Origin: a virus
Lineage: Duplodnaviria > Caudoviricetes
Strand: one strand, 5' to 3'
Virus record (IMG/VR): IMGVR_UViG_3300027205_000173
Coordinates: 32,001-96,000 of that record
DNA length: 64,000 nt
Position numbers and translations under genes: made by a program. Of the stretch, positions 1 through 7,511 are shown piece after piece. A model generated the notes under the pieces. It saw nothing but the letters and a program-made list of their open reading frames with translations. It did no database searches and was not told the DNA's origin. The stretch's first letter is position 1. The number at the start of each line of letters is the position of its first letter.

Positions 1-3000
1 CGTCCTGCTCGTCGGGCAAGAACAGAACCCATCCCTGCAGGTCCGCCAACACTAAACGCCGCAGCCATCTCCCCAAGAAGTTGAACGGCCTCCGCCCTAT
101 CCTCGTCAACACCAAGTTTTTCTAATGCCTTACGTGATCTGTCGGATGAAATGATTCTTCCGGCAACACCAGCCTTGGCGCGTGTATTTGATCCAACATT
201 AGAACGAGAACGTAATCCACCCCATCTTTCATATCCACCCACAACATCATTGACCTCAGACGCAATTGGCCCAGTCTTGGTACCATCAAGCAAATCTTGG
301 ATCATGTCTTCGGGCATTCCAGACGAGGCACCAAGGTCTCTGATCTCATCACGCAATGCATTGATTCTGTCTGTAATTCCTTGTGGTTCTCTTACGCCAG
401 CATAAACATCATCAATGATGTCGCGCATTACGTTGTCAATATCTTCGACATTGTAGTAATCACGTGATCGTGGAAGATTTTCGGTATTTGAATTCCTGTA
501 TTCGCGTGGCTCTACTGCTTTTGGTTTAGGCGTCCGCTTAGTAGTTGATTTAGCCGGTCTCGTTGCAGTGCGTGATCGCATGCCTCCTTCGTCATTAGTA
601 GGAGGTCTGGCATCTAGGAAAGTTTCTTTTTCACTTTCAAATGCCGCAACTGCTTTTTCAAATTTAATTTTAGTTTCATTCTCTTTGGATCGTCGTTTGG
701 ACTTGTCTAATACGTCCGTAGGCCAGTTATTTTCTATGGCACCGTCAATAATTCCTTGCATTACTTTTGCTGTTGCTTCGGCATCTGCGTCTGCGTTATG
801 GTGTTTGTCTCCAAGGTCGACACCAAGATATTTTGTGATATCTCCAAGTGAGTTTGAAGGCGACTTAGTGCCATCTTTGTTAACTTTGAATGGGGCATCT
901 TGATTTGTTTCAGACCATTTTGGAAGAACCATGTCGGAAATTTCTTTAGTATCGATGATTCCCTTGGGTCTCCAATCAATGCCAGAATCTTTCAATGCGT
1001 CTTCTAGGACTTCATTATCAAACACGGCGTTTTGCATTCCCATCAATTCTGTATCACCCATGAATTCAACTAATTGTTTATGGGCATCTGCTATTGAAGG
1101 TTTGTCCGCCAGGTATGCATCTGTTATTGGGTTGCCGTCGCCGTCCTTGAGGTTGTCTCGTGACCATTTTTCCCATTCCGACATTGGCGTGCCAGGGTTG
1201 ACAAACACGTTAAAACGCGCAATGACTTTGCCATTTTTCATTTTTACAGCACCTATTTGAGTAGGTAGTCCATTTCCTGCTGATTCGTTAAATTCATTGA
1301 ATTTGAGACCAGTTGTTTCGTAGTCGATGAAAACAATTTCTTTATCTGCAAGCACGCGTTTAAAATCTTCCCAATTTGTTATTCCATCAAATTCTGAATC
1401 TGCAGAACCGATGAACGCACCCATTGTTGGCTTGCGAGGATATTGCGGAGGTTTGGGTCCAGATTGTGAACGCATGCCAGTACCAGTAGAGGTACCACGT
1501 ATTTTACGGGTAGCCCTATCTAGTGCGGCCCACTGCTTATCACTTAAACGGCCACGGGAATTATATTGAGAAACGACACTTTTAGCAAAATCACCACTTA
1601 AACCACGAGCAGCCTCAATGATTGCCTTCTTGTCTTCATTAGAAAGTGAAGGCGCGATATCTTCAGCCTTATCTATTCCTTCTTTTGCAGATGGACCGGC
1701 TGATGTTTTTTTATTTTTAGAAACTATGCTACGTAGTAAATTCCATTGTTTTTCCGTAAGCCAGCCACGATTGTATGTTTTGTATTGTTCAACAAGGGAT
1801 GTAATAAGGTCATTTCCAGTAATGGACGAAGCATCGCTTATTAATTGATCTCCATCATCTGGTTTTAGTCCTGGTTGTTTAGGAGTACTTTTAGGGTATC
1901 TACTGGGATATTCTCGTGGTATTTGGTCTGGACGCCTACCGAGGGGGTCTGGCGCCGTATATCCCCGGTCTGGTCGGAAACCATCTTGCCTGGCATCGTA
2001 TGCCCTATCGCCATCTTCATCAGAAATCCAAATCCTGCTTTCGCCGTCGGTCCAGTATCGCCCGCCGCCTTCATTGTATCTAGAGCGCATCCCGCGATCT
2101 TCTACATCAACCCCCTTAGCAATGTTTCTTAAATCATCAGTTAAGGAATTAAAAATATCGTCAACTTCGTTGTCATCAATATTGTCCATACGTGAAGAAA
2201 TATTTGGAGTATTAACATTTGGTCTATTGATATTTTCAGTCTGCGTAGCACGTATGCGAGCCTGGGCATCAGGGGACTTCTTGATGGCCTTCAAGGTCTT
2301 CTTCAGGTTTGGTGCCATGTCATCAAGCATTCTTGCTGACAACATTTGCTCAACGGTCTGAAGGCCACGTGAACTTGGGTGCTCTCTAAAAGTTTCAGGA
2401 GACATGAGGTCTATCCCGTCAGGGTTAGTGAAAACTAAACGTCCGTCAAAATTGTTTTTGTTTCGAAAATCTTTTTCAAATTTCTTAGCAGCACGATGCT
2501 GTTTCAACCAACGAGCAGATTGAAGATCAACTTCGCCATCATTGACCATACGCAAATATTCATTAATTTCGCCATCGCCAAAACCATTAGTTTTTAATAA
2601 TTCTCGCCCATTATCGCCAATTAAAGAATTGATATCTAACTTTTCATTATTCATGTCAAGTTTATTTACTGGGTAACGTATCTCGGCAACGTCATCCAAA
2701 CTCACCCCACCAGCAACAAGTGCTTCGTACCTATTCCCTGGTCTGAGAGCACGTTCTGATCTACTTGCTGAAATATCGTCAGACAGAGAACCACTAAAGT
2801 TGTCATCAATAACATTTTGCAAGGCATTAGCAATATTGCGCATTCTGTCTGATTCCGAATTACCCGCAGTAATCGATTCATTAAGGTGTGCTAATCCAAC
2901 ATCGCCAGGTTCGTCAAACAAAACTGGTGTTGGATAGTTGTGTGAACGAATTGCTTCTCCGCGTGAATACGCAGAACGAGAAGCAACTTCTGGTTTTAAT

Positions 3001-7511: not shown

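Follow-up and report, generated by a model that had tools for sequence, protein, structure and literature searches.

Polyvalent proteins, described in 2017 by Iyer, Burroughs, Anand, de Souza and Aravind (PMC5512222), are giant chains in which between 2 and 15 distinct, mutually unrelated effector-type domains share one polypeptide encoded beside virion genes in portal-terminase phages, and passages of that paper predict their delivery with the DNA and propose their proteolytic processing, including autoprocessing by embedded metallopeptidases. Short motifs are the sites at which the prohead proteases of T4 and SPN3US cut the ejection proteins that those phages package (PMC10052503). Here we analyze a giant open reading frame (ORF), ORF A, at the left edge of a 64,000-nucleotide (nt) stretch, hereafter the window, which comprises bases 32001-96000 of the 124,933-base IMG/VR virus record IMGVR_UViG_3300027205_000173 (Duplodnaviria, Caudoviricetes; CheckV completeness estimate 84%). 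The encoded protein unites a zincin, two ADP-ribosyltransferase (ART) folds, a DEDDh exonuclease and three further cassettes, its gene is flanked by portal, HK97-type (S78) prohead protease and HK97-fold capsid genes, and it is a further example of the polyvalent-protein class. A short peptide tag, GMRSR or a close variant, stands at its cassette boundaries. Our preferred reading, which we hold at a probability of about 0.6, is that ORF A encodes a polyvalent cargo polyprotein that would be packaged in the capsid, cut at the tag by the prohead protease and injected with the DNA.

As in the 2017 description, a canonical polyvalent protein with ArdC-N and MPTase-PolyVal domains is encoded in the operon of ORF A. 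Unlike the proteins of that paper, ORF A has a zincin resembling anthrax lethal factor (LF) and the Pro-Pro endopeptidases (PPEPs), not a PF18818 MPTase, and every one of its cassette boundaries carries one lineage-specific tag that is shared with a protease-fused giant, an arrangement not found in the available passages of PMC5512222. T4 Alt and the T4 internal proteins (cut by gp21), and the ejection proteins of phiKZ and SPN3US (cut by gp175/gp245), are head-packaged enzymes that include an ART, as the product of ORF A would be if it is packaged. Substrates of the T4, phiKZ and SPN3US systems are processed by the prohead protease at a short consensus motif, with several sites per substrate possible (PMC10052503). 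Their proteases belong to the T4 gp21 lineage and their cuts remove N-terminal propeptides from separate products, whereas here, if the S78 protease is the enzyme, polyproteins of 2,300-3,700 amino acids (aa) would be divided into about 41 pieces; the motif also has Ser where the T4/SPN3US type has Glu, and it differs between lineages. What departs from the literature searched is the systematic punctuation of giant chains by one such word in common with the protease fusion, the rewriting of that word around exchanged cassettes, and the domain set of LF-like zincin, apparently degenerate C3-like ART and SopF-like ART.

The first-pass annotation of the window had proposed a minus-strand protein of at least 2,503 aa, absent from the list of ORFs, and the frame is real. 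It is open from TTG 7523 (2,507 aa) or ATG 7511 (2,503 aa) to the window edge, and the leftward extension that the annotation had called for, run in the parent record, reaches a stop 465 nt outside the window, giving a full length of 2,658 codons; the stop and the beginning of the following gene overlap. The start is probably ATG 7511, since it has GGAG 6 nt upstream, and it begins 24 nt after the TAA of the upstream gene (7538-7536). The frame was indeed unlisted, although only through a listing artefact, as ORFs running off the window were omitted, and the small listed ORFs are shadows of it, namely plus-strand ORFs of about 110 aa within ORF A.

1-7511, minus strand: giant ORF A, of which codons 1-2503 are in the window and the other 155, with the stop, at record positions 31535-32000
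7518-7521, minus strand: Shine-Dalgarno GGAG, with a 6-nt spacer to ATG 7511

That the long frame is an artefact of assembly or annotation has a negligible probability, its sole ground being the absence from the ORF list. The annotation had named assembly errors hiding stops as what could undo the frame, and these are excluded because independent marine runs and relatives keep it and the ratio of nonsynonymous to synonymous substitution (dN/dS) is low. Most of the ORF A stretch is contained in 18 marine-metagenome runs. A run that may be the source has a contig identical across all 7.6 kb, and three other marine runs cover all 30 bins of the stretch with variants that are 90-100% alike, in which the indels consist of compensating pairs a few bases apart, one in-frame 150-nt linker deletion and nothing else. 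Two RNA runs contain 5% of the sampled words of the stretch. The orthologues of two relatives, at about 84% protein identity, retain frames of 2,723 and 2,815 codons, and dN/dS against one of the ~84% relatives is 0.05-0.29 in every alignable segment, from which ORF A is evidently under purifying selection. Together with the ribosome-binding site and folded domains modelled at a predicted local-distance score (pLDDT) of 88, these observations establish ORF A as a real gene; we read it as a late gene of a marine tailed phage that is uncultured.

The repeated GMRSR, GMRSQ and GLRSR motifs that had been noticed in the translation correspond to five occurrences of G[ML]RS[RQ] in ORF A, beginning at aa 1256, 1807, 2012, 2310 and 2432.

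3732-3746, minus strand: tag 1, GMRSR, aa 1256-1260, in an 18-residue unstructured loop of the AlphaFold2 (AF2) model
2079-2093, minus strand: tag 2, GMRSR, aa 1807-1811, a population breakpoint where contigs diverge at 2086
1464-1478, minus strand: tag 3, GMRSQ, aa 2012-2016, a population breakpoint where contigs diverge at 1466/1475
570-584, minus strand: tag 4, GMRSR, aa 2310-2314
204-218, minus strand: tag 5, GLRSR, aa 2432-2436

Cutting at these sites would release a conserved, tag-free front piece of 1,255 aa, with an invariant Cys/Pro motif, the LF-like HEFGH zincin, a linker and the apparently degenerate C3-like ART fold, followed by five tag-separated cassettes: the SopF-like ART, a helical repeat, the DEDDh exonuclease and two helical pieces. 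In the slightly wider form G-[MLIV]-R-S-[RQK], the tag has 38 copies in this phage, all within five giant ORFs (5 in ORF A, 19 in the protease-fused giant, 11 and 2 in the two remaining head-module giants, and 1 in a tail-module ORF), and is absent from every other ORF of at least 150 aa, while shuffled proteins yield 0.03-0.07 tags each (0.03 on average for ORF A). The AF2 model places the tags in disordered loops that separate confidently folded domains. The tagged tail-module ORF (1,448 aa, 47817-52163, plus strand) has its single GMRSQ at 49653-49667, with AGA for Arg; it sits at the tape-measure position, Pfam and PHROGs give it no match, and its C-terminus contains an S-x-H-x-x-G-x-A-x-D, H-x-H pattern resembling LAS peptidases.

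The tag is also conserved as DNA. Its codons are more uniform than the background, with CGT in 30 of 38 copies against 40% and TCA in 24 of 38 against 25%, and of the 29 copies of the 8-mer ATGCGTTC in the record, 28 lie in frame in giants. Cassettes are gained, lost and swapped at the tag, which marks functional module boundaries: an additional cassette of 92 aa is inserted precisely tag to tag in one close relative; in the other, which is the closest relative, a cassette unrelated to the helical-repeat cassette (15% identity) takes its place, the flanks being 84% and 95% identical; and contigs from three other marine samples diverge inside tag codons at 1466/1475 and 2086. The codon bias, the recurrence of ATGCGTTC and the population breakpoints suggest that the tag DNA, ATG-CGT-TCA-CGT, would double as microhomology for cassette exchange, a role compatible with a proteolytic one.

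These regularities bring in the alternative that the tag is never cut and serves as a flexible inter-domain linker and microhomology joint, the giant polyvalent chain acting whole. Uniform codons, the in-frame recurrence of the 8-mer, breakpoints inside tag codons, and duplications and insertions that span tag to tag all speak for it. We nevertheless regard this alternative as improbable: synonymous tag variants exist, among them the tail-module copy with AGA, an invariant five-residue word would be needless for a pure linker, and an exonuclease cassette 88% identical to that of ORF A carries the peptide tags of another lineage. The roles of linker or joint and of cleavage site are in any case not exclusive.

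That cassette belongs to another phage (record G001), where a 3,305-aa giant contains it. The two cassette boundaries are GMRSQ and GMRSR here and L-S-S-G at the same two places in G001, with homology beginning within two residues of the tag, and the four giants of G001 contain 19 LSSG and no GMRS. Replacement of the tags around a conserved cassette therefore points to a lineage-specific reader acting at the protein level. Across the 79 related loci that we fetched, the lineage-specific tags comprise GMRS, GLRS, GM[SRA]S, STRS, SMRS, SSRS, SKST, GFSS, LSSG and LASG, and the boundary just past the ART-like domain is tagged in at least 10 lineages with six tag flavours. The G001 giant with the exonuclease cassette (10 LSSG; L010:2615-12532, plus strand; record 92519-102436) belongs to the replication module, between the genes for a Toprim/AAA_25 primase-helicase and an SNF2 helicase.

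On balance we consider that the tag is probably cleaved, and, given cleavage, the S78 prohead protease is somewhat favoured as the enzyme; the ORF A zincin is a distinctly less likely candidate, and both together, or another enzyme, account for what is left. The most heavily tagged giant, with 19 tags, is the S78 fusion itself, and the S78 catalytic residues are intact. In the LSSG lineage, moreover, all three capsid proteins examined have H-L-S-S at about residues 95-98, just before the conserved IKSIG segment, which is where the junction of delta domain and mature protein would be expected. A second candidate site in the capsid protein, G-A-N-M-S-S, was rejected as it is conserved in all lineages regardless of tag. 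Several observations weigh against the preferred reading. In the phage analyzed here, the corresponding capsid-protein junction reads G-R-T-S instead of G-M-R-S. Tagged proteins occur outside the head module, in the 1,448-aa tail-module ORF and in the replication-module giant of the relative, and a capsid-confined protease would not obviously reach them. The uniform tag codons imply that part of the conservation is at the DNA level, the scissile bond within the tag cannot be placed, and cleavage is deduced from sequence.

If the tag is cut, its reader could instead be the LF/PPEP-like zincin of ORF A, working in the cytoplasm, in the capsid or after injection. A soluble protease of this kind could reach both the tail-module ORF and the replication-module giant, and autoprocessing by embedded metallopeptidases is what passages of the 2017 paper propose (PMC5512222). 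The zincin is also well preserved, with H555, E556 and H559 invariant in 39 of 39 homologues, and no family member lacks the module; its fold resembles sequence-specific endopeptidases (LF, Z 7.9; PPEP-3 and PPEP-2, Z 5.4 and 4.9). The fold match is moderate, however, with Z below 8, the H-L-S-S of the LSSG-lineage capsids stands at the site expected for a prohead protease, the giant with most tags is fused to S78, and the zincin could equally be an injected effector. We consider the zincin a serious alternative, although a less likely reader overall.

Under the preferred reading, the ORF A protein would be built into the procapsid with three sister giants, the four together making about 41 tag-delimited pieces. 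A phage protease, most likely the HK97-type (S78) protease heading the 3,658-aa giant, would cut the giants at the tag, and the enzymes so released would exit together with the DNA, their targets early in infection being proteins and nucleic acids of the host. The context makes packaging of the ORF A protein in the virion reasonably likely. The first-pass annotation had placed ORF A within the head operon, before a capsid gene not visible in the window, and this is the arrangement found: portal and prohead protease lie on one side and the capsid gene on the other, 21 kb further left of ORF A. In order, the genes are as follows.

First, minus strand: portal (PF04860)
Second, 9719-20695 of the window, minus strand: 3,658-aa giant with N-terminal S78 prohead protease
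Third, 7536-9665 of the window, minus strand: 709-aa Cys-rich protein
Fourth, minus strand: ORF A, 2,658 aa
Fifth to seventh, minus strand: ORFs of 926, 214 and 674 aa
Eighth, minus strand: 2,543-aa giant
Ninth, L002:10873-17718, outside the window, minus strand: 2,281-aa canonical polyvalent protein
Tenth, L002:9229-10536, minus strand: HK97-fold major capsid protein (PF05065)

It is also conceivable that the polyprotein is processed and never packaged, acting as a late cytoplasmic product, for example in takeover or superinfection exclusion in the producing cell. Packaging is read from context, not directly; the related phage has its tagged 3,305-aa giant among replication genes; and the four giants, compared by pairwise BLAST and inspected at their termini, showed no targeting peptide in common at either end that could direct them to the capsid. 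Set against this, the gene lies between the portal/protease and capsid genes and keeps that position in 79 loci, the tag is common to the prohead-protease-fused giant, a neighbouring giant has ArdC-N and MPTase-PolyVal, domains of proteins thought to be delivered with incoming DNA, and the antecedents T4 Alt and P1 DdrB, as given in passages of PMC5512222, are packaged. We think a product confined to the cytoplasm improbable.

The synteny around ORF A is the same in all 79 fetched loci. In the 3,658-aa giant, S78 occupies the first 170 aa and keeps the His of WGH (aa 62-64) and the Ser of SIGY (aa 128-131), and a KTSC domain is also present; a near-tag, G-G-M-R-Q-S-R, lies just past the protease domain at about aa 188-194 and may be a self-release site. 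The 2,281-aa polyvalent protein, whose gene is directly upstream of the capsid gene, carries two GMRSR tags along with DUF3721, Zeta toxin, pentapeptide repeats, ArdC-N and MPTase-PolyVal. In all 79 related loci the two giants are separated by a protein of 420-670 aa; in this phage that place is taken by the 709-aa neighbour, and the 709-aa protein is tag-free with a weak PepSY match as its sole profile match (E 0.19). Inhibition of zincins is a known role of PepSY domains, and a zincin is encoded at the start of the gene that follows the one for the 709-aa protein.

Sequence identity of the capsid protein to its counterparts in Brevibacterium phage Cantare and in Gordonia phages, GMA6 among them, is 48%. 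The portal-to-capsid interval of Gordonia phage Chidiebere consists of separate genes, including an RNA ligase and a VIP2-like ART. Among lineages whose giant N-terminal modules are only 22-31% identical, capsid proteins are 70-85% identical (L103-L110, L002:9229-10536), and by this comparison the cargo giants evidently evolve far faster than the shell. A scan of genome contigs for a host clue gave three metagenome-assembled genome contigs, in Phycisphaerae and Bacteroidia bins, which we rejected as probably mis-binned phage DNA.

The order of domains from N to C terminus given in the first-pass annotation, including the PPGTPNANQFT motif, the zincin and the low-complexity linker of the N-terminal part, is correct, and the multi-effector architecture that it proposed is borne out by structure and profile searches. 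The features of this part are listed below.

5352-7511, minus strand: conserved N-terminal module, aa 1-720, tag-free (39-homologue alignment)
6876-6917, minus strand: R-C-P-P-G-T-P-x-A-N-Q-F-T-D motif, aa 199-212, invariant, in a low-confidence part of the model
5835-5849, minus strand: HEFGH zinc-binding motif, aa 555-559, with H555, E556 and H559 invariant
4377-5351, minus strand: D/E/K/P-rich linker, aa 721-1045 (composition)

The N-terminal module defines a family of head-module giants found in 257 IMG/VR stretches, from which the 79 loci were fetched; tblastn with the module against 50,697 cultured-phage records gave no match. Conservation was assessed from 39 homologues at about 25% identity, in which R199, C200, P201, G203, P205, A207-D212, C218, H555, E556, H559 and Q562 are invariant, the first motif reading RCPPGTPxANQFTD. 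E673 and E677, about 115 residues past HEFGH, are nearly invariant and are candidates for the third zinc ligand. The AF2 model of the module has pLDDT 69.6 and a predicted template-modelling score (pTM) of 0.71. Foldseek of this model against the PDB gave nothing below E 0.2; an exhaustive structural aligner placed anthrax LF (1yqy_A) at the top, with Z 7.9 over 222 aligned residues, followed by PPEP-3 (Z 5.4), PPEP-2 (Z 4.9) and the N-domains of LF, edema factor and Certhrax (range Z 4.9-5.8), although Z values of 4.9-7.9 for this module are in the range where chance arrangements occur. The scores are coherent in theme and moderate in size, and the assignment as a zincin thus rests mainly on the invariant HEFGH. 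Profile searches of PDB sequences with the N-module, ART-like and SopF-like alignments returned chance matches only.

With the M34-type zincins (anthrax LF, Certhrax and the PPEPs), ORF A has in common the HEFGH motif and, at a moderate similarity, a helical zincin-like fold, and like Certhrax it has an LF-like domain followed by a C3/VIP2-like ART fold; the state of the two is the reverse of that in Certhrax, as in ORF A the zincin looks intact and the ART looks degenerate. In four lineages with ORF A-like giants (L054, L062, L071 and L100), the lineage tag is also found at about aa 247-263, just after the RCPPGTP...NCF motif, and there, although not in the present phage, a cut may detach the first ~250 residues from the zincin. 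Within the linker, exactly 150 nt (50 codons, 5118-5267) are skipped in contigs of three other marine runs, an in-frame length polymorphism of the population.

The segment from aa 1030 to 1811 was modelled by AF2 from a 66-row alignment (pLDDT 88, pTM 0.75), and it contains both ART-like domains.

3747-4376, minus strand: C3/VIP2/iota-like ART fold, aa ~1030-1202 plus C-terminal helices (structure match)
2094-3731, minus strand: SopF/DUF3626-like ART cassette, aa 1261-1806 (SopF fold match)

For the first of these, the ART-like fold that had been proposed was matched, to BECa, Ia, CDTa, C2-I, C3 and VIP2 (Z 9-10, root-mean-square deviation (rmsd) 2.7-3.4 Å, about 138 aa), although no conserved R/STS/ExE triad is evident in its family, which has no conserved E-x-E ahead of the LLPPG strand. 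The residues that the family does conserve, P-P-G, several Gly and one invariant Gln, are structural, and this fold may be degenerate. Alignment of its profile by hhalign with the VIP2-like ART of phage Chidiebere was not significant (probability 1.4%).

The second domain had been called DUF3626-like, and the label is right because it has the SopF fold, a match to a phage protein annotated DUF3626, and conserved SopF-like motifs. Residues 1275-1695 match Salmonella SopF 7dn8_A with Z 11.5 and rmsd 5.4 Å, 241 of 292 residues being aligned, and 7dn9_A with Z 11.1, at a sequence identity of 9-11%. A Nodularia phage protein annotated DUF3626 matches the cassette in BFVD (E 1.5e-7). The Pfam DUF3626 profile had no match in ORF A at E up to 10, and one of 26 homologues of the cassette matches it, at 8.7e-4; a search for protein homologues of the cassette returned only one fragment at near lengths. 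SopF is a protein carrying DUF3626 (PMC6682159), and its NAD-contacting residues are E325, Y224 and Y240 (PMC11937434). The SopF sequence around the Glu, Y-I-E325-A-H-I-H-G, was read off published mutagenesis primers, and the comparison is made at the level of motifs. The cassette family has the consensus [FY]-E-A-x-I-x-G-G, its Glu being present in 43 of 58 sequences, and R-P...Y...H and R...Y motifs are conserved, all of them in ORF A, which keeps R1448, Y1453, H1456, R1512, Y1515 and E1596 (codon 2724-2726). Thus ORF A resembles SopF in fold, in the Y-E-A-x-I-x-G signature and in R-P and Tyr motifs that recall the surroundings of Y224 and Y240, and the cassette is probably an active enzyme. 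Unlike SopF, it is a phage cassette inside a polyprotein, and its target is presumably bacterial.

The remaining cassettes follow.

1479-2078, minus strand: helical-repeat cassette with two ~47-aa repeats, aa 1812-2011 (internal BLAST)
585-1463, minus strand: DEDDh 3'-5' exonuclease cassette, aa 2017-2309, with Exo I-III motifs intact
219-569, minus strand: small helical cassette, aa 2315-2431, of no known family
3-203, minus strand, continuing outside the window: Ala/Arg-rich helical C-terminal cassette, aa 2437-2658, with dN/dS 0.05 and of no known family

Both of the earlier calls made here stand. The two small helical repeats find each other by internal BLAST at E 2e-7, and the exonuclease matches Pfam RNase_T (PF00929) at E 2.2e-15 with 58 bits against a curated cut-off of 24, the D-x-E, conserved D and H-x4-D being present in the translation. 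When nine segments of ORF A were searched against Pfam at E up to 10, the exonuclease alone was named, and PHROGs gave the same result.

We found no published account of the specificity of an HK97-type (S78) prohead protease in the literature, and the tags, if they are cutting sites, would offer a tractable test of it. More tentatively, and at somewhat less than even odds, we propose that a word which each lineage can rewrite would be at once the cut code of an HK97-type prohead protease and a DNA recombination joint, by which more than 11,000 effector residues would be made as four polyproteins, about 41 proteins would be released in the capsid, and modules would be traded with phages of a different word by rewriting their flanks only. 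If the tags are cutting sites, they would provide a sequence-only rule for listing the capsid-loaded, probably injected proteins of an uncultured family represented by 257 IMG/VR stretches, with a SopF-like ADP-ribosyltransferase, an LF-like zincin and an exonuclease on the list. The evolution of the arsenal would then be explained by cassettes that move between phages and have the flanking tag rewritten to suit the resident protease, and the injected arsenal of hundreds of uncultured phages would become readable from sequence.

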